A DNA stretch of 56,056 nucleotides, counting the filler, from Jimgerdemannia flammicorona (lineage: Eukaryota): assembly GCA_003990765.1 (NCBI GenBank). It is 3 parts of 3 records of this genome, joined end to end, with 100 filler letters (N's around TTAATTAATTAA, not from the genome) between each part and the next. Parts side by side here need not be neighbours in the genome. Positions count along the whole stretch, not along the records: positions 1 to 18,620 come from RBNJ01002158.1; 2 more parts are not named here. One strand, given 5' to 3'. Below the pieces are notes generated by a model. It was not told where the DNA came from. It saw only the letters and a program-made list of their open reading frames with translations, and did no database searches. The translations under genes and the position numbers were made by a program. Each line of letters opens with the position of its first letter. Within the stretch, counting starts at the first letter, position 1. Positions 1-45,100 of the stretch are shown piece after piece.

Positions 1-2
1 AT

Positions 3-1318
3 TATGGCAACCTGCCATACAACCCATCATATCACCACAGCATAAATACAGGAAGTGCAACACCCATCTGGCAGAAACCCTATAGAATACCCCATCACTT
101 GAAAACATTCGAAAAGGAGCACATCCAAGAACTCTTAGACAATGGAGTCATCCGACCCTCTACCAGCCCCTGGGCTAGCCCTATACTTATTGTACCAAAG
201 AAAGGAGGATGGAGACTCTGTGTGGACTACAGAAAGCTCAACTCAGTCACTGAAAAGGATGCTTATCCTTTGCCCAGAATCGATGACCTTTTGGACCAGC
301 TACAAGATACCAGATACTTCAGCAGTATGGACCTCTTTGCAGGATTCCATGAGATCCCCATGGACCCCAAGGACATTCAAAAGACAGCCTTCCTTACTCT
401 AGGAAAACTGTTTGAATATCTCCGAATGCCCTTTGGACTTTGCAATGCACCCCCCACCTTCCAGAGGATGATGAATTCGGTCTATGCCCCCTTGATCCAC
501 CACTGTCTGATTATATACATGGATGATTCCAACATTTATTCAGCAAATTTCGAAGAACACCTGCACCACCTAGAGGAATTCTTCAAGCTCACCTGCAAGA
601 ATCACTTGAGACTGAATGCAAAGAAATGCTACTTTGGAAAAAGAAACTCGAATTTCTTGGATTTGTGGTCTCAAAAGAAGGAACTCATGCAGACCCAAAG
701 AAAACCGAGAAGATCAACAATTGGCCAGTACCGAAGACTCCAAAGGAAACACTATCATTCCTGATACTAGTATCCTACTACAGAAGGTTCATCAAGGATT
801 TTGCCCAAATCACTGCCTCAATCCGAATCCTTCTCAAAAAAGGAATGACATTCAAGTGGACAGAATCACAGGAAAAAGCCTTCAGAGAACTCAAGAACCG
901 CATGACTACAGCACCAGTCCTTGTACGCCCCAATCTGCAGAAGCCATTCATCTTGTATACAGATGCTTCCAAAGATAGCCTCGGAGCAGTTCTAGCCCAA
1001 GAAGGACCTGACCAACAGCACCATGTGATAGCTTATGCAAGCAGGGCTACCAATCAGCAGCAGACGAACTATGGTAGCACCAAACTGGAATGCCTTGCAG
1101 TCATATGGGTGGTCACCCTGTTCAAGCATTACCTCATCGGAAAAAGGTTCACCCTGATTACAGACCATGCAGCCCTCAAATGGCTATTCAACCGCAAGGA
1201 ACCTGCTGGAATTCTAGCCTGCTGGATCCTTATCCTTCAGGATTACAAAATCACCATCATTCACAAAGCAGGGAAAGCCCACAACAATGTTGATGTACTT
1301 TCCCGCCAGCCCCAATAA
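3..1318 (+). pseudogene. pol: Reverse transcriptase-RNase H (pol) with a single frameshift near 640
   Basis: RT motifs: SPWASPILIVPKK, RLCVDYRKLN, YPLPRIDDLL, MPFGLCNAP, YMDD. RNase H motifs in the next frame: YTDAS, LGAVLAQ, TDHAAL, HKAGKAHNNVDVLSR. The frame changes in the A-run GGAAAAAGAAAC (one base missing: decay or sequencing error). Confidence 0.93.
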
Positions 1319-2382
1319 ATCAGAGGAAGGGTGTCCCGAGGAACCACACCCTAAAGGAAGCTCCTCAGACCATCAAAGCACAGGAAGATCTTATCCAAAA
1401 AGAACATCAGAAAGCCCACCAAGGACAGATAAGCATAGAAGACAGAATTCAAAAACAATATCAACATTGGCCCCACCTCAGAACTCAAGTTCGGGACATC
1501 ATTCAGAAATATGACACCTGCCAGAAATACCAAGGAAAGAAGAACTATCAAGCCCCTCTGCAACCGATTCCCCCGCCCACTCACATCTTTCAAAGATGGG
1601 GAGTAGATGTAATTAGACCTCTACCAGTTACACCAAGAAGAAACAAATATATCCTTGTATTTGTAGAACATCTGACCAAGTGGCCCGAGGCTTTCCCAAT
1701 GGAAATTGCAGATGCCTTAACCATTGTAGGCCTCCTCCATGGGCTCACACTCAGATATGGACCCCCAGAAGAACTCATCTCTGACCGAGGCACAGAATTC
1801 ATCAACAATGTAATCACAAGTTATGCCCGAATTCACAAGATCCACCTCAAAAGGACCACATCATACCACCCCCAGACCAATGGCATGACAGAAAGAATGA
1901 ACCAGACCATCAAGAAAGGACTTGCCCGAGTCAACCCTACTAATTGGGACCTCTGCTTACCTGAGATCCTATGGGAAATTCGAAATATCCCTGCTACATC
2001 CATCAAACAAAAGCCATTCAAAATGATGTTTGCCAAGGAAACCAGAACTGCTGACCATGAGAACCTCGGAGACCTCCTCAAGAAGGCAGAACAGTTACGA
2101 AATCAAGCCCAAGGACAGATTATCAAAGCTCAGGAAAGACAAAAGAAGTACTATAACCAAAAACAGAAAGATCAGGAGATCAAGATTGGAGATCAAGTCC
2201 TAGTCTGGAGAAGCATGATTGAGACAAACTTTGCCGCCAAACTGGAACCGAAATGGGAAGGACCTTACCTTGTACACAACATCAGAGGAACCAGCATCTA
2301 TTTAAGAAGCATGGATGGACGAACCCTAAGAACACCAATATACATCAATCGCCTCAAAATATATTTCCCCTCCACACTATGA
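1315..2382 (+). CDS. int: Integrase in its own reading frame (355 codons); putative start is ATA, probably a mutated ATG
   Basis: Frame 1 is open from 1294 to 2382. It contains an HHCC-like region (EHQKAH...W...YDTC, first Cys changed to Tyr), the DDE core (WGVDVI, ISDRGTEF, YHPQTNGMTERMN) and a GPY/F motif (KWEGPYLV). No chromodomain. Confidence 0.9.
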   Translation: MNQRKGVPRNHTLKEAPQTIKAQEDLIQKEHQKAHQGQISIEDRIQKQYQHWPHLRTQVRDIIQKYDTCQKYQGKKNYQAPLQPIPPPTHIFQRWGVDVIRPLPVTPRRNKYILVFVEHLTKWPEAFPMEIADALTIVGLLHGLTLRYGPPEELISDRGTEFINNVITSYARIHKIHLKRTTSYHPQTNGMTERMNQTIKKGLARVNPTNWDLCLPEILWEIRNIPATSIKQKPFKMMFAKETRTADHENLGDLLKKAEQLRNQAQGQIIKAQERQKKYYNQKQKDQEIKIGDQVLVWRSMIETNFAAKLEPKWEGPYLVHNIRGTSIYLRSMDGRTLRTPIYINRLKIYFPSTL

Positions 2383-2894
2383 GCCAAAGGATTGATCAGC
2401 GCCTCCAGACATTGGTCCTCAGCTCCTTCCAAGCCCTACCTGTTCCTCTACCCCAATTCGGCCAAGCCAATGGAAGCCCCCTTCAAAGGATCCAAGCTCA
2501 TCAAGAAAACCTCACCTTGGCCAGATGCCTACTACAAGTCCACCAACTGCAGGCCTATTATGCAATCAGTGAACAATTGCAGAACCTCCCAGCCCCAGAA
2601 CAGACCTACATCCGAAACACTACAGGTCTGACCAGAAGAGACACTACTGCCGCAGACAGACTATACACCATTTATAAACGAAATGTCACTGCCCTGACAC
2701 AGGTACAATTCTCCCTGAATGATATTCAAGGAATGAACCCTGTTACTTATCTGAGCATCATCAACTCTGTCGAAATCCTATTCCCTGAAGAAGAAGAAGA
2801 GCCCTTAGAATGGAGTAACTCCAGCACAGACAATGAAGATGATGGAACAGATATAGATGCAGAAGCAGCCTATGCTTATTGGGATGATGACTGA
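2379..2894 (+). CDS. Accessory ORF3 of family A (171 aa, unknown function, acidic C-terminal tail)
   Basis: ATG at 2379 overlaps the integrase TGA (ATGA). The ORF is intact and ends just before the PPT. The tail reads EEEEEPLEWSNSSTDNEDDGTDIDAEAAYAYWDDD. Confidence 0.75.
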   Translation: MSQRIDQRLQTLVLSSFQALPVPLPQFGQANGSPLQRIQAHQENLTLARCLLQVHQLQAYYAISEQLQNLPAPEQTYIRNTTGLTRRDTTAADRLYTIYKRNVTALTQVQFSLNDIQGMNPVTYLSIINSVEILFPEEEEEPLEWSNSSTDNEDDGTDIDAEAAYAYWDDD

Positions 2895-2921
2895 AGAATA
2901 GTCTGAGACAGACTACCCTTC

Positions 2922-2933
2922 AGTGGGGGCTGA
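2922..2933 (+). other. Polypurine tract of family A
   Basis: AGTGGGGGCTGA lies immediately before the LTR start TGTGACA. Confidence 0.65.
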
Positions 2934-4325
2934 TGTGACAAGCCAAGACATACCACCTGAATCATATCTTAACCAGATGATACGAACAAGATGACATGAA
3001 CACTCAGCTTAGTAACCAGCAACTCTTGTTGCAGAAAACTGTATAAATAGCCAGACATACCAGAAAGGGTCTGTTTACCTGTACAGACTCTGTACACCGT
3101 ACAGACTCTGTACACTGTACAGGTCCTGTACACCGTACAGACTCTGTACACCTGCCATAAGTAGCAATCTATAGTTAGCCACATAGTAACCAGATAGCAA
3201 CCAACTTGTATAAATTACCCCAGAGGCGAGAGTGAATAAAACCTCAGTCCGAAATACAAACACCAAAGAAGTCTCTAAAGATTGAGCATTGGTCCCCTTT
3301 CCATTCCAGTCCACTTTCCGATACAAAGAAGAGTCTGATACATTTTTGGTTCGCTTGCCAGATAAGCCTGAAGAATTCGAGTTTGCCACCTAAGTTCAAG
3401 GAAGAACTTTGCCGCCTTTGAAGAGAAATCCTTGGTTTGCTTGCCAGATAAGCCTGAAGATTTCTGCCTTTTCCGCCACCTAAAGGAAAGCCGCCTTGCT
3501 CAAGCCAGTTTCTGACACAACTTCGCAGTGATTTGTCGCACAAACGAAGCCAGTCTTTGAAGTAACTTTGCCAAGAGACCCTTTCCCAAAAGAACGCCGC
3601 CAGTTTTATCTGCCATATTTCCAGTTAGAGCCGCCGATTCAGGAAGAATCTGCACCATTGTATTTCCAGAAGAGCCATCTGAGTTATTTTCCAGAAGCCC
3701 ACTGATTCAGGAGAATCCGCGCCATCCGTCGTTTTCGAGTTGTCTGTATTCCCAGAAAACCCATGCCATCTGAGTAGTATTCCCAGTTAAAGCCATCGAT
3801 TTAGGAAGAACCCGTGACAGCCGAGTTATTTGTCATTCCCAGTGAGCTTGCTATAGAAGAACCCGCCACCAGCATTATTCCCAGAAAGGAGAACCCGTGC
3901 CTTACATTCCCAGTGAGCCAAATCGAGTCGACCACCAGAAATCGCATACTTTTGGGGATCGTCGCGCTACACAAAGAAATCGCCTGCTACCCAAGAAGGA
4001 GAACCGCTAAATTACCAGACCATCACGCACAGAGATTGTCATGCAGAAATCAGAGATCATTACTCAAGAAGGAAACTGCTCACGCTACACAAATTGTACC
4101 ATTCCCAGTTGACCCAAGAAGGAAGTCCATTCACACACAAATCACCGCTACACCCAGAGAACTGTCCAAAAAAGGAAACTGCTTGCATAGTATCCAGATC
4201 TTGGCTATTATACCGCTAAACACCAAGAACATTTTGTTGCTTTTTGACAAAGTAACTGGGGGCTCAAGCTAAACTACATCAACCCCCAACCTTGTAATTT
4301 GCCTCCATTGAGCCGGCATGTTACA
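2934..4325 (+). repeat. 3' LTR of family A (~1.39 kb)
   Basis: Termini are TGTGACA...TGTTACA, with a TATA-like GTATAAATA at ~3041. It aligns with 37441-38673 and both copies end at the same base. Confidence 0.9.
3080..3151. repeat. 4 x 18-bp palindromic tandem repeat (TGTACAGA-C-TCTGTACA-C) inside the LTR
   Basis: Units read directly at 3080, 3098, 3116 and 3134. Confidence 0.95.
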
Positions 4326-10355: not shown

Positions 10356-13300
10356 ATGAACAACCACCACAACAACTACTCTGACTACAAGAGTCACCCC
10401 TACAAGAATTCAAGATAAGATAGAAATATATCCCCCCACATTCTATAGATATACTACTGAAGAGTCAATCCTGACCTTCATTAAAAACTTTGAACAATTC
10501 ACCACCATATGAGCTCTTGGTATAGATGCACAATTGGCTCTTCTACCTATCAGCCTCAGAGGACCTGCCAGAGACAAGTTCAATACAGCTACTATTGCAG
10601 ATAATGGTGCAGCCAAACTTACCAATATGAAGGCCTTCCTCAGAACAACATACTATACTGAAGAGATCAAACAAGCTCTCAAGGATCAACTCAATACTAT
10701 CTGCCAGAGACTCAGCAAAGATCCCAACTCATTCTATATTTGAATCTACTACCAGATTATCTTGGCTGACTATGATGATGCCCTTAAGAAACAAATAGTA
10801 GATTCAACTCCTCAAAGGAGTTTACCCTGAAATTGCTCTAGCAATTCAGTCTACTCTAGCTGCACTGACTCTTGATCAGAAAGTGGTCTTTGCATAGAGA
10901 TATTGGACTGTCAGATACCCTGCCAAATACTCAATAGAGAAAATAACTGGCATCAAGATAGAGTCATCAAAGCTAACTAGTATTATACCTACTACAGTTG
11001 TAAACAGACAACCATCCCCACCTACCCCCAAGATAGCCAAAGCTGACCCAGTGGAGGAACTCACCAAGTAGTTTGCCAAGATAACTGCATACCTTGGTGA
11101 TGTTATTAGAGAAGTCTGAAGTGACAACAGGAGACCAGTATAGAGATTTGCAGCTACTATAGAAGAATACAATATTATATACTTCAGATATGAAGAAGAA
11201 GGCCACTATGCAAAGAGTTGTATGACTGAAATAAGACACAAAGCCCAACCAAGCAATGCTAGCAGAACTAGAGAACAAACCAATGCAGTAGTTATTGAGA
11301 AGATTGGTGATACTGATAATAAAGAATACTATGAGGAGCTCAAATTCTACCCTACTACTGAAAGTACTAGAATCTGGTCCAAGCCTTATAACAAGAAGAG
11401 CAACAGCAAGCCAGTTGGAAGACCAAAGAAGACCCCAGCTATCACTATTCAAAGTAAGATCCAATCAAAGGAGATTAATCAAGACATAGAGTTAGATGAA
11501 GCTATCTACTAAATCATTGAAGACACTACTCCAGTCTTAGGAGAAAGTAAAAGTAAGAAGAAACAGAAGCTATGCAAGACCAAGATCCACTAGTATGATA
11601 TCTACAAGGACTTTAAGGAATAGAAGGTCAATGCTACTTTTGAACAACTAGCCAAAGTCCCTGCTTTCAGACAGCAGTTGAGAGTAGGACTTGTAACTAC
11701 TACCAAGAATCAAGAGTACAAGATTGTAGAAGCTCACAATGCATAAGAAGATGATCGAGAAAACTCAGGTGAAGAATCTGAAGATCAGTACAAGATATCA
11801 GCCTATACCCCATATCAGATTGAAGATTGTATCTTTAATGCTATTATTGATACTAGTGCTAGAGGATGCCTCATGAGCAAGAAGGCAATTGACCACCTAG
11901 GCTGGGACATTGAAGAGTCCACCAAGATGGTCTATGTTACAGCAGATGGTATATGAGCTACCCCCCTTGGCAAAATCTGAGAAGTCCCCATCAAGATAGG
12001 AGGAGCTACCATCTCAGTAGATGTGATCATTATAAGTATTACTAACTATAACATCCTCATTGGCAACCAATGGCTTCACAAGGTCAAGACCATCATTAAC
12101 CTCAATGCCCAGAAGATGCAGATCAACTATAGAGGAAGAAAGGTATAAGTCTCTATTAATGTCTACAAAGGAGTTCTACCAGACATGGAGAAAGGAGATG
12201 AGGAGGATACAGAAGTCTTCATGCACTTAGTGAACAAGAACAAGAACAAGACACCCAAGCTCACAGATGAGCAGTGGTACATACAACAAGATCATTGATA
12301 GCTATGCTCCTCAAGAAAGATGCCCCCATGGTACTAGGATGTACTGCTCTGAACACCTGAATGACTGCTGGTCCTATATCAGTGAAGTCAGGAAAATCTG
12401 CCAAAAGAAGTATGAGCAAGAAGCTGCTGAAGCAAAAAGGAAAGCCAAAGAAGATGACCAGCCCCCAGAGCTTTAAGCTGACAAGGAGAAACAAGAACCA
12501 GATATTACCCTCAAGATCAAGAAGTTCTACCCTGAAGCCAAGATCCCAGAATATAAGACTGAAGGAGCCATAGGAATGAACCTTGCTAGCATTTAAGATG
12601 CTACCCTCAAACCACAGACCACTACCCTACTTGGTACTGGAATTGGAATCAAGTTACCAGAGAACTATGCCAGAATTATCAAGACCAGGAACAGTCTGAC
12701 CAAAAGCAAAATCTCAGTTGAAGGAGGAGTAATTGATCCTGATTATACTGGTAAGATCTTCTCATAGTCAGGAATCACAACTCCACCACTCCATTTGAAG
12801 TCAAGAAGCATGATAGGATTGGCCAGATGTTGATCCACAAAATCAAGAAGTCCAAGATCACTGAAGTCATTGAACTCATCAAGACTAAGAGAGGAGAACA
12901 AGGCTTTGAATCTACTGGAAGAGGAGTCTATGCTGCTATCAAGATCACCAAACTTGAGTACAAGAAAGACAGGGACCAGAATAAGCACACATATACTATT
13001 GGAGAAAACTTTCCCCTGGAAGAACAACTTCTTAAGATCCTGTATCAGAATGAAGAAGTACTGGCTACAGACTTCAGAGATATCTACAATCAAGAACCCA
13101 AGTACTATCATGAAGTTAACACTGATGATACCAAGCTCATCTACCAGAAAGCCAGACCTATACCACCTGCCTACAGAGAATAGCTGCAAGTAGAACTCAA
13201 GAAAATGGAAGAAACTAGAATCATCAAGCAAGCTATCAGTTCCTGGGCTTCACCTATTGTCCTTACTCTGAAGAAAGAAAATAAGTCTGGAGAGTTTGTA

Positions 13301-14440
13301 CCAAGACTCTGCATTGACTATAGGAAGTTCAATACAGTTACCAAGAAGGATAGGCAGCCCTTGCCAAATATTCAAGAAATCCTTACCACCCTTAGAAGTA
13401 AAGCCAAATATTATACTATCTTGGATCTGTTCTCAGACTTCCATCAGATTGGTCTCACTCAAGATACCAGTGAGAAATCAGTCTTCATTACATCTGATGT
13501 CATCTATATCTACCTGTGAATGCCATTTGGAATGTACAATACACCAGCAAGTTTTTAGTGAATGATGAACAGAGTCTTCAGCAACAAGATTGGAAAATGG
13601 CTCTTTGTCTATATTGATAATATGATCATCTTCAGCAATACTGCATGAGAACATATCAACCATATACAGCTAGCCCTCAAGAAGCTCAAGAAGTATGACC
13701 TCTACATCAAGCCCAAGAAATACAAGTTTGTAGCTCAGGAAATCACCTACCTAGGACACCTCATCAACCAGACTAGAATCCATACAGACTCTATGAAGAT
13801 TGAGGCTGTTGCAGCCTACCCAAGATCCAGAACAACCACAGAAGTCCATGCCTTCCTTGGACTGGCCAGCTACTATAGAAGATTCATCAAAGGATACTCC
13901 AACATTACAGCACCTATCTACAAGCTACTGAAGAAGGAACCCAAATTCAAATAGACCAAGAAATGCCAAAAAACCTTCAATAAACTCAAGACCAGATTGA
14001 CCCAAGCACCTATTCTCAGAAGACCAGATTGGAACCTAGAATTCATCCTGCAGACAGATACAAGTACTATAGGACTTGGAGCAGTACTAGCTTAGAAGAA
14101 AGATAGACATGAATATGTCATCTCCTATGTAAGCTGAGGTACCCATAGAGTAGAACAGAACTACAAGTCATGCAAGCTCAAATGCTTAGCAGTAGTTTGG
14201 GCAGTAGACAAGTTCCACTACTACCTAGCTGAGAAATACTTCACTATTCAAACAGATCATTCCACTCTTACCTGGCTATTCCATACTCTGAACTCCAAAG
14301 AAATATATACCAGATGGATCTACAGGCTATAAGAGTATGACTATACCATCAAGCACTACTCAGGAAGAACCAACACCAATGCTGATACACTCTTAAGAAT
14401 ATCTCAAAACACCTCCATCAAGACTATTCAACATGAATAA
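10356..14440 (+). pseudogene. gag-pol: gag-protease-dUTPase-RT-RNaseH of family B, many nonsense changes
   Basis: CCHC knuckle relic (FRYEEEGHYAKSC, ~11180-11220), protease AIIDTSA (~11840), RT SSWASPIVL / RLCIDYRK / YIDN (~13610), and RNase H LQTDTS, TDHSTL, NADTL. Confidence 0.92.
12501..12922 (+). pseudogene. dut: dUTPase domain within gypsy pol
   Basis: All five trimeric dUTPase motifs are present in order: GAIGMNL, TRNSL, GGVIDPDYTG, DRIGQ, RGEQGFESTG. There is one stop and one frameshift (~12760). Confidence 0.93.
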
Positions 14441-15376
14441 GAAGTTATACTATGGATTAATCAGCTATCTTGAGCAGCAGAAGATGCCCAACTACCTCGA
14501 ACCCTGGACAATTACCATCATTAACCAGACTTAGAAACAGTTTGAACTAGACAATACTATCCTCAGAAAAGGAAGAAAGCTAGTAATACCCAAATATAAG
14601 AAATATCAAGTAATAAAGGAAGTACATGAGCAAGGATATCTAGGAGGAACCAATATATATGACAAGGCAAGAAGAACTATATGGTGGCCCAAGATGGAAG
14701 AAGACCTGTACCAATTTGTCAAAGAGTGTAACAAGTACCAAAAACAGAAATAAGATCAGTAAGACCAGGTATCTGGGTTATCAAGAATTGAGCCTATCCC
14801 CTTCCACCACATTGCAATGAATATTATTGGGCCACTACTAGTAATAATATCAGGAAACTACTATATTATAGTTATTGTAGACCTCTTTACTAAATGAATA
14901 GAAGCAGGAGCATTACAAGAAGCCAATGCCCTCTCTATAGCTAACTTCTTGTATCAAGAAATTATCTGCCACTACAAGACACCAAGACAAATCACCACAG
15001 AAGAATTTGTCAATGGATTTTATGAGTTAATATATCAGAAATATAAAATTCAGTACATCAAGACCACCATATACCACCCTCAAGGAAATGGACAGACAGA
15101 AAGAACTAATAAGATCCTCAAGAACATCTTGATGAAAATCTCAGAGATATATGAGAATTGGAATAACTATCTCTCAACTGCTCTCTCTATTCAATGAGAT
15201 ATACAGTCACAGAGCACACACTTTACCCCAAGAGAACTACTCTTTAGAGAAGAAGATTCTAATAGAACCTCAGCCACAAATCTAGACCTAACTTGGAGAC
15301 AAGTTGATACAGAAATCTGGAGACTACACCAAATCAGAAAGAAGGCTGAAGATTATATCATTAAGTCACAAGTGCT
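14433..15376 (+). pseudogene. int: Integrase of family B in a separate frame (truncated)
   Basis: ATG 14433 begins MNKKLYYGLISYLEQ. Downstream motifs include VHEQGYLG, WWPKM, VKECNK, IIGPL and YHPQGNGQTERTN. Confidence 0.88.
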
Positions 15377-27082: not shown

Positions 27083-29297
27083 ATGGCCACAACAGCAGAA
27101 AGACGCAGTTCGCTCGATATTTCTGATTTAAGAACCCTCCATATGGAGGGGAGCCAGCAGACCCTGATTGGGTACGAACTATCTCCTATCCCCACTATGT
27201 CGCTAGCTCTGCAAGTAGCACAACTTGAAAACATGGAGAACGATTCTACGCTGCCTGTTGGGACCGAGAATCCTTTGAAAAAGAGTGTTACTCTGGATTT
27301 GGAAGCGGCAACCGATCTTCCAAATGGAAATGACAAGCTTGAGAAAATGACATCCAAAATATCAATAGTAAGCCAGGCCGCTCCGGACGGCGGATACGGG
27401 TGGTTCGTCGTCCTCGCGGCTTTTTTGGTTAACTTCTATGTCTGGGGTGTCTCGTATGGCTGGGGTATCTACCAAGGATTGTATGTAGTATTTATTATTG
27501 TCACTCGTTTGAAACAAAAAAAAAAATTGTCAGCCTGTTCTCACAAATCATCTTTTTCAATGTTATTTTTACCGACCTGAAGATACCTAAACGATGTCTA
27601 CAAGGGACAGACCAGCACCTTGAAGATCGCGTTTATCGGAACATCAGCGAACGCAGTACTTACGTCGTTGGGTCTCTTCCTGACTCCTATTATCAACCGA
27701 ATTGGCTATCGAGGCACAATGGCTATCGGCACTATCTTGGCACCTTTAGGCTTGGTTTTGGCTTCCTTTTCCACCGAGGTATGGCATATTGAATTCACCT
27801 CGATATACACAAATAAATCAAATATACTTAACGCCGATCCGTTTCTCGACATCGTTTCAGCTTTGGCATCTATACATTACACAAGGAATTCTTTTCGGTA
27901 TGTCGTCTGTGACTTTTTGATCTTGAGTCACACCATGTATACCTTGCGTGCAAGTTCACGGTGCTCAATATGGCATGGTTTCGCTAATACTTTATATTAT
28001 GTCGCATAGGAATTGGAGGTGCTTTCGTCTTCTCCCCCTCTATTGCTCTTCCCTCTCAATGGTTTGACAAACACCGAGGACTCGCAACAGGTTCGCGTTT
28101 TAATAACCATTTCAAGTCACTCCACTGCTTTGTATTTTCGTTTTCGCTAACCATGAACAATACACAACTATAGGCATGTCTGTCTGCGGCTCCGGCGTCG
28201 GCGGCCTGGCGCTCACTCCCCTCGTCCAGTTCCTTATTGAGAACGTCGGGTACCGCGCCACTCTGCGTTATATGGCGATTATAGGTGTTGTAATCTTGGG
28301 TATCGCCACGTTCCTGGCTAAGCCAAGGTGGGCGTTGAAGGTTGGCAATGATGGGAAGATGTTTGATAAGTCGCTGCTGTCTAAGCAGCTGTGGATCATG
28401 CTCTTCTTCGGCTTCACAGTAACTTTCGGGTATTTGGTAAGCATCAATATTTTGTCGTCGATGTTAACGCTATGCATTGTACTAACAATCGACCTATCCA
28501 TGATATTTTTAATCGACGTTAGGTTCCATACTTTTTGATGCCTTGTAAGTAGTGTTTGTTACACGAAGCGCTTACTCTACTATATAACAAGAGGATTTAC
28601 ATGCCGAATTACTTCTTTTTAATTCAGCCTATGCTATCTCTATCGGCCTCTCGCCAGCAACTGGCGCAGTTGTAGTAGGTGTCATGAGTGGCTTCAACGC
28701 CGCAGCTAGGATTGGACTCGGCTACACGGCCGATCGATTGTAAGTCAGATCGAAATATCTTCCTACAACGGATTAGAAAGCTGTAGAATTCGAACTAACT
28801 CGCCTTCTATACCTTTCTTCCGATACTTTCCAGTGGCCGTGTCAACACCATGTTTGTCTGCACCTTGCTAGCTGGCCTCGCGTGTCTCCTGCTTTGGACT
28901 TTCGCCAATAATTTGGGTGTCCTCATGGCCTTCGCAGTCGTATACGGTGGTAGCGGTGGTGGTTTCATCTCGCTTTTCCCCGTGGTGACGGCCGACGTTG
29001 TTGGTGTTAAGAACCTCAGCAACGTGCTCGGTGCCGTCTACGCATCGAACGTTTTCGGAAATCTTCTTGGTAAGCATCACTGGATTATATACGATTGCTT
29101 ATCCGTTAACAATGTTGCTCATACAATGTTGCTATTATTTGATAGGTACACCTCTGGCCGGTGCCATTTACGATGCTGCGGGTGGTTCATACATTCCGGC
29201 CATGATATTTTCGGGAGGCATGTCCGTAATTGCCGCGATATCGATGGCCTATTTGAAATACTTGCGGGGAGGCGGAAACTTCTGGAAAATGGTCTGA
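27083..29297 (+). CDS. MFS transporter, monocarboxylate porter (MCT/SLC16-like) family, multi-exon
   Basis: APDGGYGWFVVLAAF signature, SQWFDKHRGLATG, GSGVGGLALTP, GYRATLR, GYTADR, VYGGSGGGFISLFPVV and GTPLAGAIYD. Introns are GT-AG. Confidence 0.93.
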
Positions 29298-29833
29298 AAG
29301 TTGAGAATTTACAACCACCCACAATCCAAACATCCCATTGTACACTATGCATATATTTTACAACACCTTTTACAAGTAGCTACATTGTACGTAATTTTCA
29401 ACATACTATACCATAGAACAATTTATTCTCAAGTGAGAATTCAATATTGCATTTTATTTATTTATTTTTTACGACAAACCGTAAATTAAAAGTGAGGATT
29501 ACCGGTGCTCGAAGCGGGCCATGCAGTAAATCAGGTATCTGGCACACAAATAGAGTGTCTCGTTGAACAATTGTCTATTAAAGCCAACTTATTACATATT
29601 GACTATTCTGTGGGACGAACCAGGATCTACACTGTTAGTGTGTAGCACAGGCTGATGGCTAATTTCTAAAGTATAAAAAAGGGACTTAGTTACAGAAATG
29701 AGTTTGCTAAAGTATAAAAAGTATAAAAAAGGGACTTGGTTACAGAAATGACGTCACATCCCGTGACTGCGGCTCTTAAACTCTGGGCTTCGGGTCTATA
29801 ACCTTCATAACCTTCTCTCTTTTTGAATTCAGC

Positions 29834-32800
29834 ATGGCTACTGTAGAGGAAAAGGACGCCATACTCGCTCAGCTTCTTGGTCTTGGCTTTGACTTTGACC
29901 TGTGCCAGAGTGCCCTCGAAACGTGCTCCACTGTCGAGGCCGCCACAGATTGGTACGCCAACACTCCCCCAGAACGAGCATTTTGACGTCGACCGACGGG
30001 ATTCGTCCATGTAGCCAACGCCACCGTGACTGACTGTATTTAGTCTCTACCCCCCACACGCCTTATTAGGATCTTAACGTCTCAAAACCCCAACAGCCAG
30101 CATGGAAACCCTTATACTTCCGATCGTCCTACCCTTCGCCTCGGTTCTGGATCCTCCTCCGCCACGGTACCGCAGCCGCTTGACGCCACCACCAAATTCA
30201 ACACGTCAGACGCGTCGGTAGAGGTTCGCATTTGGTCGGGTCTTTATATCGTAAACGTTCTTTCCCTATTCATATTGCCTCCCCTTTTCACGTCCTACCA
30301 ATAAGTCCTCGATCGGGACAGCTCCGCTCCCGTTCCACTCGCGTCACGACATCCCGGATGACGACGAGTACACCCGCGACAGCAAGGAGAAGGCCGCTAG
30401 GCTTGCCCAGGAGACCAAACGACAGAAGAATGCGGAAAGAGAGGTGAGTATGCGTTTGTGTGACATCACAGGCTCGGTACCTCATGATGGTTCGCAGACC
30501 TAGGCTCATCATTTCTTGAACCAATGTCCTCACTACCACGTAATCGCGCAGGCACACCGTCGCGCTCTCGTGCAAATCAAGGAGGACCGCGAAAAAATCA
30601 AAATCCGGCGCACACACATACCGGCAGACGAGGATCACGTCATGTCGGACGCCCAGCTGAAGTCATCCTCGTCAGTACCGGCCACGCCTGCTTCGCGGCG
30701 CATGACCACAGAGGCGGAGAGAATTGCGCAGGACCAGAAGAGGCAGAGGGCTATGGACCGGGAGGTGGGTAATGGAGTAGATGTCCCCGCATGTACTTGG
30801 CTGCAGTCTCAGACAATTTTTCAATGCTGACTTCGTCCGCCTACAATCCTTCCCTACCCAAAAAGGCACATCGCCGCGCCCTCCTCGAGATCAAGGCCGA
30901 CCGTGAGGCTCAGCGTAACCGGTCGAACCACACCACGTCGGCCTCCGCTCAGCCACTGGTCACGTCCTCGTCACAAACGCCCCCGGACACCGCGTTAATC
31001 CAGGTCTGTGGGATAGACTTCATAGATCCTGACATTTGCTCTGCATTTCGGCGAAATCTTACGCTGTTGTATGCATCTCATACATACATCAGATTCGATT
31101 CCCAGATGGCTCCTCCGTGCGCCAGGCCTTCCCGGCCGTTACCAAATTGGAGGCGTTGTTTGAGCTAGTCGCGAAGAGGGAGGCGGGGGATGTGGAGCTC
31201 GTATCGGTGAGTCAGGTTGCGGGTTAGAGGGTTGGTGGGACGAAGTGATGCGTTAAAAAAAATTGAGCCAGGAGATATCCATGATGGCCAATTGACGTTT
31301 GTACTGTGCCCATTTTCTTGTAGCCGTTCCCGAGGCGCGTGTTCACTCGTGCGGAGGTGGCCTTGACGTTGCAGGAGGCTGGTGAGTCGGTCGACTAAGC
31401 GGATGATGAGACATGTTTGGTGGGTGGAGTGATGCCGTTTCCGTGCAATGGGATCGGGTATATTAGGTTTGATGTCAACACTATCTTACAAACTCGATTA
31501 TGATATCGCATCCCCCGTCCCATTCTCTTTTTATCCGCGATTAATGAATCCCAGGCCTGACCCCCAATTCCTCTTTGAATGTAACGCGGCTAATTGTCGA
31601 CCAAGTATGTTATTTCTGCTCTTTGTTGTCTCTTTTTGTGCCACTATTGACTATATGTCGATATTCATCTAAACCTCATTGTTTGTTTGATAGCGGCAGG
31701 ATCCTTTGGTCTTCCCCGATCCACCACCATCGACGGTACCACTGGCAATGCTACAGAATGACACCGTCCCTGGGACTTGGCCCGAGGAAGATGTGGCTGG
31801 GCGGTCTGAAGCAACGCAGAATGTGAGTGGAGGGGTGACTCGGTAATTTGGATTGACGAGGAGGGGTGATCGGTTTCCAAAGCGGTAGTGACCTGATCGG
31901 CACTGGTATATCTCTGAACATCTTCACGTCGACCACTCTCCCACAGCGCATGGAAGAAGGGGACCGAACACCAGCACAACAACCACCCCCCGGCCCACCC
32001 TTTGAGGACGCTGGCCCCCAACCACAAATCCAACCACAAGTCCAACTCCCCTCGCACTTCCTCCCCGCGCCCTTTCTCATTCCTCCCATCTTACCCGCCC
32101 ACGACGATGACCACGATATGCTCCTCAACCTCAACAATCCGGACCCGCGCCGTCCCATGTGGGCCGCTGACGCCGGCGTAGGACATCGTCTGGTCGCTGC
32201 CGACTCCGCTGATACCGCCGCGGCCGCGGACGACGCTGAACCAGAGCCGACAAGGCCCACGAGGGAGATGCGCGTGCAGGTACTGGAGGCTGCGGCGAGG
32301 ACGGTGCCGAGGGTGGGAGAGAGGGCTAGGCTGCGGTATCAGGTTAAACCGTTGAAGGAGGTGTGCGCGAGCATTGTCGCTGGTAGGTGGAGGGTGGAAT
32401 GTTTGTAGAGGACGCTCAGGGCTGGGTTTATCTAAGCATGCGTGATGGTGCGTACTGCTGATCTTTTGTCCTTCCTCCGAAAAAACGAAGGTCTCCTCAC
32501 ATCCTCCACCGCCACCGCGAAATTGCACCTCCATTCACTGCATTCCGTCTCGTCGGGTGTTGCGGAGCTCCTGCTCGCGAAGCTGATCGTCATGCAGAGC
32601 CTCGACAGGATCGTGCTGGCGAGGCTGGTGAATCATTGGTGCGTCGTTGCCAGTCCATGGTTTCTCTTCTCGCCTTTTCGTGTTCTTCTAAGCCATCGTT
32701 TTCCGACCCGACGTTTTCCCCTCCGTTTACTCATCGTCCCTCACTGTGGTGCTATCTCAAATTGTTACAGCTACCTCCAAAACGTCAAATTCGACACGTA

Positions 32801-40966: not shown

Positions 40967-42172
40967 TTACTTCTTTTGTATAGATCCATGGTACTTTTTG
41001 AGTCTGTTTCTATGTACCATAGTAGGCAGTATGGTTCTTGAGAGTTTTCTAAGCCAGAAGATAGTTTTCTTGATATCTTGTACATAGAAGAGTTCTTCCC
41101 ATTTGGGCTCCAGTTTTTATGACTATGAGGCTTCTACTATATTTTGATACAGTAGGACCTTTTCTCTGATTTGGATGAGTTCTAGGGTCTTGTGATTCTT
41201 TTCTACATTCTTCCTTATCAGTGCTTGTGACTTAATGATATAATCTTCAGCCTTCTTCCTGATTTGATGTAGTCTTCAGATTTCTGAGTTAACCTATCTT
41301 CAAGTTAGGTCTAGATTTGTAGCTGAGGTTCCATCAGAATCTTCTTCTCTGAAGAGCAGTTCTCTTAGAGTAAAGTGTATACTCTGTAATCATATATCTT
41401 ATAGAACAGAGAGAGTAGTTGGAAGATAGTTATTCTAATTGTTATATGTGTCTGAGATCTTTACCAGGATATTCTTGAGAGTCTTGTTGGTTCTTTCTGT
41501 CTGTCTATTTTCTTGAGGGTGGTATATGGTAGTCTTGATGTGCTGAATCTTATATTTCTGATACATTATCTTATGGAATCTATTGACAAATTCTGTGCCA
41601 TAGTTTGTAGTGATTTGCCTTGGTGTCTTGTAGTGGCAGATGATTTCTTAGTGCAGAAAGTTAGCTATAAAGAGAGTATTGACTTCTTGTAATACTCCTA
41701 CTACTATCTATTTAGTAAAGAGGTCTACAATAACTATAATATAACAGTTTCCTGATAGTATCACTGATAGTAGTCTAATGATATCTATTGCAATGTGATA
41801 GAAGGGGATAGGCTCAATTCTTTATGACCTGGGTATTTGGTCTTGCTGATCTTATTTCTGTTTTTGGTACTTATTACACCCTTTGACAAATTGGTGCAGA
41901 TCTTCTTCTATCTTAGACCACTATATAGTTTTTCTTACTTTGTTATATATATTGGTTCCTTCTAGATATCCTTGTTTATGTACTTCCTTCATTACTTGAT
42001 ACTTCTTATATTTGGATATTATAAGCTTTCCTCCTTTTCTGAGTATAGTGTTGTCTAGTTCAAATTATTTCTAAGTCTGGTTGATAATAGTGATAGTCTA
42101 GAGTTTGAGGTAGTTGAGCATCTTTTGCTGTTCAAGATAGCTGATTAATTTATAGTATAGCTTCTTATTTAT
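40967..42172 (-). pseudogene. int: Integrase of family B (complete, eroded)
   Basis: ITTNYGTEFVN, YHPQENRQTERTN, LEPKWEELFYV (GPY/F relic) and VHRNRLKKY. Confidence 0.88.
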
Positions 42173-45100
42173 ATTAAATAGTCTTGATGGGAGTGTTTTG
42201 GGGTATCCTTGAGAGTATATTAGCATTGACATTAGTTCTTTCTAAGTAGTGCTTGATAGTACAGTCATACTCTTACAGTCTATAGATCTATCTGGCATAT
42301 ATTTCTTTAGGGTTCAGAGTGTAGAATAGTCAGGCAAGAGCAGAATGATCTGTTTGAATAGTGAAGTATTTCTTAGCTAGGTAGTAGTAGAACTTATCTA
42401 CTGCCCAAACTACTGCTAAGTATTCAAACTTGCATAACTCATAGTTCTGTTCTGCTCTATAAGTACCTCAGCTTATATAGGAGATAATATATTCATATTC
42501 ATCTTTCTTCTGAGCTAGGACTGCTTCAAGTCCTATAGCACTTGCATCTGTCTGCAGGATAAACTCTAGATTCCAATCTGGTCTTCTGAAGATGGGTGCT
42601 TAGATCAATCTGGTCTTGAGTTCATTGAAGGTTTCTTAACATTTCTTAGTCTATTCAAATTTAGTCTCCTTCTTCAGTAGCTTGTAGATAGGTGCTATAA
42701 TGTTAGAGTATCCTTTGATAAATCTTCTGTAGTAAGAGGCCAGTTTAAGGAAGACATGGACTTCTGTAGTTGTTCTGGATCTTGGATAGATAGCAACAGT
42801 CTCAATATTTATAGAGTCTATATGAATTCTAGTCTGGTTGATGATATGTCCTAGGTAGGTAATTTTCTGAGCTATAAACTTACACTTCTTAAACTTGATA
42901 TAAAGGCCATACTCCTTGAGCTTCTTGAGAGCTAGTTGTATATGGTTAATATGTTCTCATATAGTATTGCTGAAGATGATCACATAATTAATATAGACAA
43001 AGAGCTATTTTTCAATCTCATTGCTGAAGACTCTATTTATTATTTACTGAAAACTTGCTGAAGCATTACACATTTCAAATGGTATTTGCAGATAGACATA
43101 GGTAGTATCAGGTGTGATAAAGACTGATTTCTCACTAGTATCTTGAGTGAGACCAATCTGATGAAAGCCTGAGAATAGTTCCAAGGTAGTGCAGTATTTG
43201 GCAAGGGCTGTCTATTCTTCTTGGTGATTGTATTAAGCTTTTTATAATTAATACAGAGTCTTGGGGCAAACTCTCCAGACTTACTTTCTTTCTTTGGAGT
43301 GAGGATAATAGGTAAAGCCCAGGGGCTAATAGCTTACTTGATAATTCCAGCTTCTTCTATTTTCTTGAGTTCTACTTACAGCTATTCTCTATAGACAGGT
43401 GGTATAGGTCTGGCTTTCTGATAGATAGGCTTGATATTGCTAGTGTCAACTTCATAGTAGTACTTGGATTCTTGATTATAGATATCTCTGAAGTTTGTGG
43501 CAAGTACTCCTTCATTCTGGTACAGGATCTTGAGAAGTTGTTCTTCTAGGGGAAAGTTTTCTCCAATAGTATATATGTGCTTATTCTAATTCTTGTCTTT
43601 CTTGTGCTCAAGTTTGGTAATCTTGATAGTAGCATAGACTTCTCTTCCAGTAGATCTAAAGTCTTGTTCTCCTCTCTTGATCTTGATGAGTTCAATAGCT
43701 TCAGTGATCTTAGGCTTCTTGACTTCATGGATCAGCATCTGGCCAATTCTGTCATACTTCTTGACTTCAAATGGAGTGGTGGGGTTGTAATTTCTAATTA
43801 TGAGAAAGATTTTACCAGTATAATCAGAGTCAATTACTCCTTCTTCAACTGAGATTTCACTTTTGGCCAAACTACTCTTGGTTTTGATAATTCTGATATA
43901 GTTCTCTAGCAACTTGACTCTAATTTCAATACCAAGTAGAGTAGTAGTCTGTGGTTTGAGGATAGTATCTTGAATACTAGTAAGGTCTATTCCTATGGCT
44001 CCTTCAGTCTTATATTCTGGAATCTTGGCTTCTGGATGAAACTTCTTGACCTTGAGAGTGATATCTAGTTCTTGTTTCTCCTCATCATCACTGTCAGCTT
44101 GAAGCTCTGGAGACTGGTCATCTTTTTTGGCTTTCCTTTTTGCTTCAGCAGCTTCTTGCTTATACTTTTATTGGTAGATTTTTCTGACTTTACTAATACA
44201 GGACCAGCAGTCATTCAGGTGTTCAGAGCAGTACATTCTGGTATCATGAGAGTATCTTTCTTAAGAGGCATAGCTATTGATGATCTTATTATACCACTGC
44301 TCATTTGTGAGCTTAGATGTCTTGCTCTTATTCTTATATATCAAGTGCATGAAGACTTCTGTATCTTCTTCATATTCTTCCTCTATGTCTGGTAGTACTT
44401 CTTTGTAGATATTGATAGAGACTCATACCTTTCTTTCTCTATAGTTAATCTGTATTTTCTGAGCATTGAGATCAATGACAGTCTTAGCCTTGTGAAGTCA
44501 TTGGTTGCCAATAAGGATGTCATAGTTGGGCATTTATAACAATCATGTCTACTGGGATAGTAGCTCCTCTTATCTTGATGAGTACTTCTTGGATCTTGTC
44601 TGGGGGGGGGGTAGCTTATATACTATTTGCTGTAATATAGATTATCTTAGTGGACTCTTCAATATCCTAGCCTAGGTGGTCAATTGTCTTCTTGTTTATA
44701 AGATATTCTCCAGCACTGATATCAATGATGGTATCAAAGATACAATCTTCAATCTAATATAGAGTATAGGCTGATGTCTTATACTGGTCTTCAGATTCTT
44801 TATCTGAGTCTTTGGATTCTTCTTCTATATTGTGAGCTTCTACAATCTTGTACTCTTAGTTCTTGACAGTGGTTGCAAGTTCTACTCCCAACTGCTGTCT
44901 GAAGGCAGAGATTTCAGCTAGTTGTCTAAAAGTAGCATTGACCTTCTGTTCCTTAAGATCCTTGTAGATATCATACTAGTGGATCTTAATCTTGTGTAGC
45001 TTCTGTTCTTTCTTACTTTCACTTTCTCCTGAGACTGGAGTAGTACCTTTAATGATTTGGCAGGTAGCTTCATCTACATAACTCCATATCTTGATCAATC

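Follow-up and report, generated by a model that had tools for sequence, protein, structure and literature searches.

A retrotransposon copy in Jimgerdemannia flammicorona raises the question of whether an LTR element can carry its integrase as a cistron of its own and, if it can, how that cistron would be translated. The copy stands at the start of the window, meaning the whole stretch of DNA analyzed (56,056 nt, filler included). A preliminary description of the locus had proposed that reverse transcriptase–RNase H (RT-RH), integrase (INT), and a third ORF (ORF3) are chained by ATGA stop–start overlaps and expressed by coupled reinitiation, with the first overlap decayed to ATAA in this copy. 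The architecture, its ancestry, and the route of translation are three separate matters and receive different degrees of confidence here.

The Window Copy

The features of the copy are as follows.

3..764, + strand: N-terminal part of RT in frame 3 (Pfam RVT_1, E 1e-31), the element being cut by the start of the window
527..1318, + strand: ORF for the C-terminal part of RT plus RNase H in frame 2, ending ...VDVLSRQPQ with stop TAA at 1316-1318
635..642, + strand: copy-specific 1-nt frameshift within RT, from frame 3 to frame 2 (the ORFs 3..764 and 527..1318 overlap)
1315..2382, + strand: integrase ORF of 355 codons plus TGA, in the -1 frame relative to RNase H, with the frame open from 1294
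1315..1318, + strand: junction 1, ATAA by direct reading, where the RNase H stop TAA overlaps the first integrase codon, ATA
2379..2382, + strand: junction 2, a literal ATGA by direct reading, the ORF3 ATG (2379-2381) overlapping the integrase TGA (2380-2382)
2379..2894, + strand: ORF3, encoding an acidic (pI 4.3) helical protein of 171 aa whose C terminus is a YWDDD tail, with stop TGA at 2892-2894
2922..2932, + strand: purine-rich tract AGTGGGGG, then TG, by direct reading

The ORF and junction coordinates of the preliminary description all hold (TAA 1316-1318, ATA 1315, INT TGA 2380-2382, ORF3 ATG 2379). Junction 1 reads ATAA because the integrase lies in the -1 frame and its start, which reads ATA AAT CAG from 1315, overlaps the RNase H TAA. 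Pfam identifies the RNase H domain in 527..1318 (RT_RNaseH, E 9e-37; RT_RNaseH_2, E 8e-36) and, in the frame-1 ORF 1294..2382, the integrase domains rve (E 1e-9) and Integrase_H2C2 (E 1e-6).

The domain order along 3..2382 (RVT_1, RT_RNaseH, Integrase_H2C2, rve) is the RT-RH-IN order by which Ty3/gypsy elements (Metaviridae) are recognized. Upstream, relatives encode gag (zf-CCHC, Ty3 capsid) and protease (PR), and a dUTPase sits between PR and RT in loci L001 and L002. The single PR-RT-RH-IN polyprotein that also characterizes Ty3/gypsy elements was not found, the RH/IN boundary being split in the window, L001, and 20 further loci. The window integrase has no Pfam match to the Chromo domain that marks chromoviruses; a tree neighbor, L031, has the domain.

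At the 3' end, AGTGGGGG and the following TG at 2922-2932 are probably the polypurine tract and the start of the 3' LTR. Divergence of many contigs begins after about 3240-3254, and positions 3162-4300 are similar to 37651-38648 within the window. Positions 1 to ~3250 are best explained as a dead Ty3/gypsy-type LTR retrotransposon copy of which the window contains the 3' part. Self-comparison found no further nucleotide copy of its pol elsewhere within the window, so the "Family A" of the preliminary description amounts there to one 5'-truncated copy.

The copy is dead, its integrase ATG having become ATA, a zinc-finger Cys having become Tyr, and RT carrying a frameshift. In its integrase, I1 replaces the family's M, Y66 its C, and R101 its G, C66 and G101 being invariant. 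Sister copies were compared through metagenome loci and the contigs of four runs (X1, X2, X3, and X5). At the RT frameshift, an extra G behind 635 occurs in X2 (1/1 contig) and X3 (depth 2.7 of 6.05), and X1 contigs have loose ends after 641 (5 records).

Ancestry of the Junctions

The closest metagenome locus, L001 (INT 86% and RH 76% identical to the window copy), reads CCCAATGAACC where the window reads CCCAATAAATC, so that its first junction is ATGA, composed of the RH stop TGA and the INT ATG. Site 1317, A in the window, is G in all 13 covering X1 contigs and in the single X5 contig, giving ATGA. The X3 contigs mostly carry A like the window, with G in 1 contig only (depth 2 of 20.3). At the protein level, the window integrase is 86% identical to P0121, and its sisters have a Met start: sister integrase ORFs begin MNQRKG or MSQRKG, and in the 90% integrase cluster, which has 19 members, 12 of the 15 listed start M[NS][QK]RKGVP, the remaining 3 being fragments that start at an internal Met. 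The proposed descent of ATAA at 1315-1318 from ATGA is borne out by L001, the X1 contigs, and the sister Met starts, and the ATG missing at 1315 is present in the sister copies. The window copy has lost its first AUGA by a G-to-A transition, and in its subfamily both junctions are 4-nt AUGA stop–start overlaps.

Junction 2 is known in sister copies from proteins only, since the contig differences listed include none at 2379-2382, with 801 further differences beyond them. Of 14 sister ORF3 proteins, 12 have Met at the position of the junction (starts MNQ, MTQ, and MID), and the second codon always begins with A. At both junctions of the window subfamily, the overlapping TGA is preserved because the second codon starts with A. 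The INT/ORF3 overlap ATGA also occurs in a distant locus, L012. L001 is itself damaged upstream, with an in-frame stop inside the dUTPase and a frame change near 1310-1382, and the loci examined included no intact full-length element of the window's own subfamily.

A Split pol as a Clade Trait

Decay in both copies invites the explanation that the frame break is damage of dead elements whose active relatives have a normal fused pol. The RT frameshift, the ATA for ATG, and the replacement of the invariant C66 and G101 by Y and R in the window copy would fit this, as would the damage to L001. The break recurs, however, with a conserved integrase Met in 22 DNA-verified loci from many families and in two more copies within the window.

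14433..14440, + strand: RNase H/integrase junction of copy B, from a second family, reading ATGAATAA, with ATG at 14433 (MNKKLYYGL...) and TAA at 14438-14440
42170..42176, - strand: homologous junction of copy C, a decayed member of the copy-B family, with ATA for ATG and with the RNase H frame ended early by a TAA

Among 26 related elements with the integrase start located in DNA, 24 have ATG at the same profile position 1, and the 2 exceptions are ATA, both in the window. Because the Met start recurs at one position in 24/26 elements, the start at junction 1 is beyond chance. Of the best 150 representatives of 50% clusters, 22 are also integrase-only proteins with M[NDE] at profile position 1.

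The distance between the frames varies across the 19 junctions with a located integrase start and the RH end on the same contig. In 9 of them the start lies within -11..+2 nt of the stop: ATGA twice plus the window's decayed ATGA, TAATG, ATGnnTAA twice, ATGn5TAA, TGAnnATG, and one decayed junction. Spacers of 30-89 nt separate the frames in 6/19 and spacers of 163-727 nt in 4/19. The frame relation differs by family (offset 0, 1, or 2), and in L011, L022, and L038 the integrase lies in the RH frame, behind stop codons.

A continuous RH–INT frame was not found close to the window copy. The search for longer proteins gave no fused pol above 34% identity at at least 60% coverage (best 120 of 140 matches), and the search for similar-length proteins gave integrase-only ORFs at 36-86% identity. 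More distant relatives carry a fused pol. In the tree, all 22 split rows fall into one group (SH-aLRT 96), and a tree with the split rows as one clade vs 18 fused rows scores 19 lnL above the free quick tree (p-AU 0.863). A scan of viral contigs gave 7 loci, all at most 29% identical, which were left aside.

Between the window and L001, dN/dS is 0.11 for INT and 0.12 for RT-RH over 218 codons (dS 0.67-0.86, with INT at 0.67), a level of constraint on INT that also speaks against damage, and none of the 12 contig indels considered, from 26, lies near 1300-1320. Damage of dead copies is an extremely improbable explanation. Two further candidates were ruled out: an intron across the junction (coding sequence is conserved on both sides, the Met is conserved, and none of the spacers read starts with GT) and stop-codon reassignment (RH ORFs end in TAA, TAG, and TGA alike).

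The split is a clade trait and not copy-specific damage, given the INT dN/dS, the clade-wide sharing, and an ORF3 conserved with its own Met. These same results support the chain of RT-RH, INT, and ORF3 as three ORFs, and the three-ORF architecture is very probably the functional ancestral state. In this diverse clade, to which the window copy belongs, the long ORF runs (gag-)protease-(dUTPase-)RT-RNase H and stops a few codons past the RNase H 'LSR' motif; the integrase has an ORF to itself, begun by a conserved AUG, and the third ORF encodes a small acidic helical protein.

The Third ORF

ORF3 has 7 homologues at 57-81% identity, and its pN/pS is 0.30 in its own frame, compared with 0.81 and 2.26 in the alternative frames. 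Pfam assigns the window ORF3 to no family, and the protein lacks a transmembrane segment, its maximum 19-residue hydropathy being 0.91. By this hydropathy, the pI of 4.3, the lack of a Pfam match, and the all-helical model of L012, it does not resemble the env-like ORF3 of errantiviruses, which is marked by a signal peptide or transmembrane segment and a fusion-glycoprotein fold.

An AlphaFold2 model of the window ORF3, built from 9 sequences, reached a pLDDT of 42.9 and was discarded. For L012 ORF3, a 16-sequence alignment gave a predicted all-helical bundle with a pLDDT of 89.3. Searches with this model found no Foldseek match at E <=0.001 in PDB or BFVD, and among 48,161 chains compared by VIA-align none reached Z 5, the top score being 4.5. 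Sequence-profile matches to PDB (best E 0.032 and 0.12) were taken as noise. ORF3 thus appears to be a conserved protein with a fold that is predicted confidently yet unmatched.

Comparison of the window-type ORF3 with the ORF3 of relatives gave an hhalign probability of 30% (E 5.6e-4) and reciprocal HMM matches at E 9.5e-4, 0.0058, and 0.044 among 860 ORFs, which is suggestive of homology and no stronger. In the data set, ORF3 homologues are confined to the split clade (13 loci, with 0 fused loci below E 0.1). ORF3p might be a dedicated factor, functionally analogous to the caulimovirus transactivator TAV, that enables reinitiation on the element's polycistronic RNA, and its acquisition might have let the clade detach its integrase; this idea is a long shot.

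Routes to Integrase and ORF3p

Under coupled termination–reinitiation, ribosomes finishing the RT-RNase H ORF on full-length RNA would start again at an AUG overlapping the stop or close to it, producing integrase, and a second reinitiation at the integrase stop would yield ORF3p. Both proteins would be released free and in sub-stoichiometric amounts, and protease cleavage at the RH/IN boundary would not be needed. This mechanism fits best, and we rate it as the route for INT and ORF3 at about an even chance. No RNA run that contains the element appears among the 12 runs listed. The preliminary description stands as to the ATGA ancestry and the three-ORF chain; for coupled reinitiation, we infer it still, from a geometry that fits and from the absence of -1 sites. 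One review lists AUGnxUGA (x = 2, 5, 8, 14), UAAUG, and AUGA as geometries of coupled termination–reinitiation (PMC5972666), and the close junctions of the clade match them. A stop and start that overlap or lie a few nucleotides apart, as this mechanism expects, were found at junction 2, at the sister junction 1, and at the 9 close junctions of 19.

INT and ORF3 could instead be cistrons with their own subgenomic or spliced mRNAs, or an internal promoter, the overlaps reflecting genome compaction only. Retroviral env and foamy-virus pol are translated from their own mRNAs. The conserved AUG fits this explanation as well as it fits reinitiation, and the spacers of 30-727 nt (10/19), some of them AT-rich, could contain a promoter or splice acceptor. 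A free-standing mRNA, however, needs none of the known reinitiation geometries seen at the 9 close junctions, nor the A-initial second codon found everywhere at both junctions of the window subfamily, and the RH coding sequence that directly precedes the AUG is under constraint (dN/dS 0.12).

The spacers bear on the same choice. The 7 RH-to-INT spacers of 30-163 nt contain 1 ATG in 520 nt vs 5.35 expected from shuffles (P 0.019, with length classes picked after the data were seen), a scarcity that is compatible with scanning and argues against separate mRNAs. The 4 spacers of 163-727 nt are not depleted (22 ATGs observed vs 23.2 expected), and neither are the INT-to-ORF3 spacers together (7 ATGs in 540 nt vs 7.99 expected, 6 of the 7 being in L013, where the start is called with uncertainty). 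With spacers of at least 30 nt at 10/19 junctions, four of them 163-727 nt, the clade as a whole cannot be governed by tight coupling. Taking both sides together, separate mRNAs are a somewhat unlikely explanation.

Predicted RNA structure touches all of these routes.

1268..1306, + strand: predicted hairpin whose end lies some 9 nt 5' of junction 1 (z -2.74)

The homologous stretch of L001 is also predicted to fold into a hairpin (z -3.04). Folding of the remaining six RH/INT junctions yielded z from -0.52 to +2.03, and junction 2 was likewise without significant structure, so no clade-wide upstream RNA element was found among the eight RH/INT junctions folded, a result that suits separate mRNAs and counts against coupled reinitiation. 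As a candidate cis element of the window subfamily, the hairpin is a lead only.

IRES-like internal entry at RH/INT and INT/ORF3, independent of upstream termination, would account for a separate AUG behind an ORF as long as 4.7 kb (L002, 1577 codons), and the stable hairpin predicted just 5' of the junction in the window subfamily would suit it. Yet significant structure is absent from 6 of the 8 RH/INT junctions folded and from junction 2, and internal entry leaves the stop–start proximity and the preserved TGA overlap unexplained. It is an improbable route.

Programmed -1 frameshifting, which is used at the gag-pol junctions of many retroelements, would act near the RH stop to give an RT-RH-INT fusion. 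The integrase does lie in the -1 frame in the window and L001, with 7 open codons before the ATG or ATA. The structure predicted there, however, is upstream of the junction and not downstream, an X_XXY_YYZ heptamer occurs in the RH frame at 0/8 overlap-type junctions, and in L006 and L043 the INT frame extends back from the ATG by just 1 open codon. The frame offsets of 0, 1, or 2 by family also oppose it, and the conserved initiator Met would be superfluous. Frameshifting is very improbable as the explanation.

Implications

In the literature searched, no gypsy or other LTR element was found described with a separate integrase ORF or stop–start overlaps. Reviews describe RT, RNase H, and integrase of LTR retrotransposons and retroviruses as cut from a single Pol polyprotein, frameshifting or readthrough being confined to gag-pol, and credit termination–reinitiation to non-LTR elements only (PMC5902531, PMC5972666, PMC10275272). 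If coupled reinitiation is correct, this would be the first polycistronic translation in an LTR retroelement. A separate integrase cistron would offer a new means of setting the dose of integrase independently of RT, and it would explain why gene finders and TE classifiers label such ORFs 'integrase-only' or 'IS30/InsO transposase.' The clade provides a natural set of dozens of diverged stop–start junctions, from overlaps to spacers of ~160 nt, that could serve the study of eukaryotic reinitiation after very long ORFs.

Comparison with Known Systems

A close likeness is the Bombyx non-LTR retrotransposon SART1, in which ORF1 and ORF2 are translationally coupled at UAAUG (Kojima et al. 2005, cited in PMC10275272, PMC5972666, PMC5902531). 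It too is a retrotransposon with a downstream ORF at a stop–start overlap on one RNA, and its geometry is that of L006 (TAATG) and near the ATGA of the window family. LTR retrotransposons, unlike non-LTR ones, are described as using frameshifting (PMC5902531). SART1 differs in being a non-LTR element, in being split between ORF1 and ORF2 rather than within pol, and in requiring a structure downstream of the overlap; the downstream products here, unlike those of SART1, are an integrase and an accessory protein.

Fungal RNA viruses share an AUGA or UAAUG overlap that follows a long upstream ORF and functions in fungal cells. Atlas neighbors of the window integrase come from mixed groups (Arthropoda, Mucoromycota, Rotifera, and others) and those of an MFS fragment mainly from Ascomycota, a pattern that points weakly to a fungal host. 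Victoriviruses use coupled termination–reinitiation at AUGA. The hypovirus CHV1 does so at UAAUG (PMC2699510). These are RNA viruses whose downstream product is an RdRp or a polyprotein, and their upstream elements (a pseudoknot and 18S complementarity) are proven experimentally, whereas the element described here is known from its sequence.

Calicivirus VP1/VP2 and influenza B M1/BM2 rely on TURBS-dependent reinitiation (PMC10275272, PMC5972666). Their stops and starts overlap in the same ways (AUGA, UAAUG, AUGnxUGA), and the downstream protein is expressed at a low level. They need a TURBS of 40-87 nt with 18S rRNA complementarity; the clade has a predicted upstream hairpin in the window subfamily only.

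The Caulimoviridae, with a polycistronic pregenomic RNA and the TAV transactivator (PMC5902531), are Ty3/gypsy-related reverse-transcribing elements in which the polyprotein is split into consecutive ORFs and accessory ORFs have been added. They lack an integrase, and their reinitiation depends on TAV, a dedicated viral protein; no similarity of the split-clade ORF3 to any known protein was detected by Pfam, PDB profiles, Foldseek, or VIA-align.

In canonical Ty3/gypsy elements, including the dUTPase-bearing ones of fungi and bdelloid rotifers, pol is one PR-RT-RH-IN ORF (PMC2864245, PMC5408684). The split clade keeps their domain order of gag, PR, dUTPase (in L001 and L002), RT, RH, and IN, and some canonical families also have an extra ORF behind pol. 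The clade differs from them in that its ORF3 is not env-like and its integrase has a cistron and an AUG to itself.

The element at the window start

The window opens with 2.9 kb of a Ty3/gypsy-type element, copy A; the window edge truncates it, leaving its 3′ part. Open reading frames (ORFs) were taken from stop to stop, and four were found.

ORFs of copy A, with Pfam domains
3..764, + strand, frame 3: reverse transcriptase (RT), RVT_1
527..1318, + strand, frame 2: RNase H, RT_RNaseH
1294..2382, + strand, frame 1: integrase, Integrase_H2C2 and rve
2223..2894, + strand, frame 3: ORF3, no Pfam match

As read from the sequence, the RNase H ORF ends in VDVLSRQPQ followed by a TAA at 1316–1318, and integrase read from 1315 begins ATA AAT CAG (junction 1). 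At the other end, the integrase TGA (2380–2382) is overlapped by the ATG of ORF3 at 2379–2381 (junction 2). The preliminary description had given both junctions exactly.

No further copy of the copy A pol was found in the window by blastn with 1–4300. The sole similarity was LTR-like, between 3162–4300 and 37651–38648, and amounts to ~1 kb of common non-coding sequence that is 72–95% similar. It begins within the presumed 3′ LTR and extends past ~3254, where many metagenome run contigs diverge; its extent may reflect either the true end of the LTR or a nested repeat. Short tandem repeats with units like gtacagactctgtacac occupy 3055–3166, just within the presumed 3′ LTR, and run contigs omit 91–110 nt there, so the repeat number differs among copies.

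Two distant gypsy copies were recovered by tblastn, at ~13.1–15.4 kb (+) and 41.0–43.5 kb (−). Copy B (13097–15371, +) is a second gypsy family from the same split-integrase clade, with the junction ATGAATAA, in which the integrase ATG lies at 14433 (MNKKLYYGL) and the RNase H TAA at 14438–14440. Copy C (40982–44167, −) is a decayed relative of copy B with many stops. At its junction (42170–42176) ATA stands for the integrase ATG, and a TAA closes the RNase H frame early; upstream, at 43586–44167, lies a dUTPase ORF (Pfam E 4e-22). The only host-like gene noticed in the window consists of MFS transporter fragments at 27581–29413 (+), with MFS_1 (Pfam E 3.5e-6) in the ORF at 28799–29413 and mostly Ascomycota among its Atlas neighbours. 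The GC-richest stretch (0.54), at 30000–34000, holds many overlapping ORFs of 130–195 aa on both strands without a Pfam family.

A clade with separate integrase

The integrase split is the character of a clade. Alignment A1 brings together 26 proteins that consist of integrase only; at least 90% of them have Met in column 1, ahead of a conserved N-terminal segment, [NDE]xx[LIxY]Y..L..YL. JGI metagenome contigs scanned with A1 gave 601 matching stretches, 368 of them encoding relatives, from which the 80 best were retained. The A1 HMM placed profile position 1 in 22 loci. Starts were set by mutual alignment for copy A and locus L001, where the N-terminal segment is shorter, and by motif search for copies B and C, which brings the located starts to 26. 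The start is ATG in 24 and ATA in two, window copies A and C. For 19 of the 26, the contig includes the RNase H end. Integrase starts −11 to +2 nt from the RNase H stop in nine of these; the spacer is 30–89 nt in six (L011, L038, L007, L022, L030 and L004) and 163–727 nt in four (L018, L025, L008 and L020). A reassigned stop codon was rejected, as RNase H ORFs terminate with TAA, TAG or TGA.

Forms of the nine close RNase H/integrase junctions
ATGA: L001, L002
ATAA (decayed): window copy A
TAATG: L006
ATGnnTAA: L043, window copy B (14433–14440)
ATGn5TAA: L005
TGAtcATG: L003
Decayed: copy C

RNase H and integrase are fused in one ORF in 23 more distant loci (integrase at most 31% identical) of the 42 with both domains placed, and L032 and L034 are likewise fused. 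Integrase phylogeny was inferred with IQ-TREE on 61 rows, after 22 sources that matched fewer than 250 profile positions, or none, had been set aside. All 22 split rows fall within one starred group (SH-aLRT 96) of 30 rows, together with 7 unlabelled rows and the long-branched fused L034. A tree constrained to separate the 22 split from 18 fused rows, a grouping chosen once the first tree was known, reached a lnL 19 above the free quick-search tree (p-AU 0.863). Among the best 150 matches of an exhaustive profile search (1.84 billion cluster representatives), 22 are integrase-only proteins with residue 1 at profile position 1, and all 22 begin M[NDE]. Many other top matches are long fused or chimeric animal-type pols, so the profile by itself cannot delimit the clade.

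Upstream, the clade tends toward a gag-to-RNase H fusion with integrase alone detached. This follows from the ORF layouts of four relatives. L002 has a single 1577-codon ORF with zf-CCHC, protease, dUTPase, RT and RNase H, and L007 a single 1479-codon ORF with Ty3-capsid gag, zf-CCHC, protease, RT and RNase H. L006 uses two frames, gag and protease–RT–RNase H. In L001 a dUTPase lies 5′ of RT, but the reading frame is interrupted by a stop and changes, so this locus is damaged too. Because of the split, eukaryotic retroelement genes are misannotated as bacterial transposases: in metagenome pipelines the integrase-only ORFs go by "IS30 family transposase" or "transposase InsO family protein".

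Decay of copy A and the frame break

Copy A is dead. Its RT switches frame near 635–642, where sister contigs from metagenome runs X1, X2 and X3 have one extra base. Its integrase has I, Y and R at the family's nearly invariant M1, C66 and G101. In the HHCC zinc finger the first Cys is replaced by Tyr66 (1510–1512), and Arg101 (1615–1617) stands where the family has an invariant Gly; with ATA for ATG, these changes mark the copy as nonfunctional.

The RNase H/integrase frame break is not part of this damage, because sister copies, expected to be fused if it were, are not fused. Mere decay has the slimmest chance of any explanation of the break. L001, the closest DNA relative (integrase 86% and RNase H 76% identical), has CCCAATGAACC at junction 1, where the window has CCCAATAAATC; the L001 junction is ATGA, from the RNase H stop TGA and the integrase ATG. 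Base 1317, A in the window, is covered by contigs of X1, X3 and X5 but not of X2. It is G in 13 of 13 X1 contigs (depth 166 of 166) and in the one X5 contig; in X3, G occurs in one contig only (depth 2 of 20.3), so that run mostly has the window's A. The ancestral ATGA suggested in the preliminary description is confirmed by L001 and the X1 contigs. Differences between X1 and the window are transitions at 282 of 308 places, and near-identical words are present in soil and root metagenome runs. The host is probably a soil fungus. No indel lies near 1300–1320 among the 12 listed of 26 between run contigs and the window.

Proteins give the same start. In a 90%-identity cluster of 19 members around the relative P0121, 12 of the 15 listed begin M[NS][QK]RKGVP at the same position, and the other three are fragments starting at an internal Met. 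Proteins of 199–634 aa include integrase-only ORFs at 86%, 63% and 53% identity, then dozens at 36–43%; among those of 635–2000 aa (120 listed of 140 matches), none exceeds 34% identity at ≥60% coverage. Between the window and L001, dN/dS is 0.12 for RT–RNase H (218 codons, dS 0.86) and 0.11 for integrase (354 codons, dS 0.67), so purifying selection acted on the separately framed integrase as it did on RT while the two lineages diverged.

ORF3

An ORF lies directly 3′ of integrase in most relatives with enough downstream sequence, and the three-ORF chain first described for copy A extends to the whole clade. The window ORF3 has seven homologous proteins (100–183 aa, 57–81% identity). Met stands at the junction position in 12 of 14 ORF3 proteins (MNQ, MTQ, MID; cluster members included), the other two being fragments. 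The second codon is always A-initial (N, T, I; S in the window), which any ATGA overlap needs if the stop is TGA. L001 mirrors the window, with ATGA at junction 1 and CCATAATTG (ATAA) at junction 2, and its close relative P0244 has Met at junction 2. The ATGA overlap of integrase and ORF3 is also found in L012 (1488–1491), from a distant family with integrase ~32% identical to the window's. In its own frame ORF3 has a pN/pS of 0.30 (82 aligned codons; pS saturated at 0.80), against 0.81 and 2.26 for the same DNA in the two alternative frames.

An HMM of seven relatives' ORF3s detected four further nonmember ORF3s (E 7e-31 to 2e-9) and the window ORF3 (E 9.5e-4) among 860 ORFs. The reverse HMM reached L004 (E 0.0058) and L007 (E 0.044), and no fused locus fell below E 0.1 with the ORF3 HMMs. 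The hhalign probability between the window-type and relatives' ORF3s is only 30%, so homology across the clade is likely rather than proven.

The ORF3 protein is acidic (pI 4.3) with no hydrophobic segment, and neither the window ORF3 nor its relatives match a Pfam family. The predicted model of the L012 ORF3 (1488–1916; 16-sequence alignment) is a confident one (pLDDT 89.3, pTM 0.83) and has eight helices. Foldseek searches of PDB and BFVD with this model gave nothing that reached E 0.001, and VIA-align gave no convincing neighbour (best Z 4.5). The clade ORF3 may represent an undescribed fold or family.

Translation of integrase and ORF3

The ORFs are separate, with conserved AUGs, and stop–start distances concentrate at geometries of coupled termination–reinitiation, which the available text of one review lists as AUGA, UAAUG and AUGnxUGA, with x = 2, 5, 8 or 14 (PMC5972666). 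Termination–reinitiation of integrase and ORF3 is a well-motivated reading of this geometry, with about an even chance of being correct. The seven RNase H-to-integrase spacers of 30–163 nt speak for ribosomes arriving at the AUG from the stop: over 520 nt they hold a single ATG, where mononucleotide shuffles give 5.35 (P 0.019, with length classes picked post hoc). The three longest such spacers are not depleted (22 observed, 23.2 expected), nor are the integrase-to-ORF3 spacers taken together (7 observed, 7.99 expected; six of the seven in L013). In the window (z −2.74) and in L001 (z −3.04), a hairpin is predicted to end ~9 nt 5′ of junction 1; no structure was found at the six other RNase H/integrase junctions folded or at junction 2 (z −0.5 to +2.0).

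Integrase might instead be made from a subgenomic or spliced mRNA, which seems less likely, or by internal ribosome entry, which is more doubtful still. An intron across the RNase H/integrase junction was rejected on conserved coding on either side and spacers without an initial GT. Frameshifting would be very improbable: an X_XXY_YYZ heptamer in the RNase H frame occurs at none of eight overlap-type junctions, L006 and L043 have a single open codon 5′ of the AUG, frame offsets vary between families, and in three families integrase shares the RNase H frame behind stop codons.

Comparison with known elements

Searches of full texts, mostly from outside the subscription journals, turned up no account of an LTR retrotransposon whose integrase is a cistron of its own, though one may exist. 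The available text of three papers credits termination–reinitiation among retroelements only to the non-LTR SART1 and LINE-1 (PMC10275272, PMC5972666, PMC5902531), and one of these reviews has LTR retrotransposons using frameshifting instead. Reports on gypsy elements of fungi and rotifers that carry dUTPase or additional ORFs present pol, as far as their available text goes, as one ORF including integrase (PMC2864245, PMC5408684). By domain content and order, copy A is a gypsy-type retrotransposon without the single Pol polyprotein of gypsy elements, and its apparent resemblance to a termination–reinitiation system is one of geometry only.
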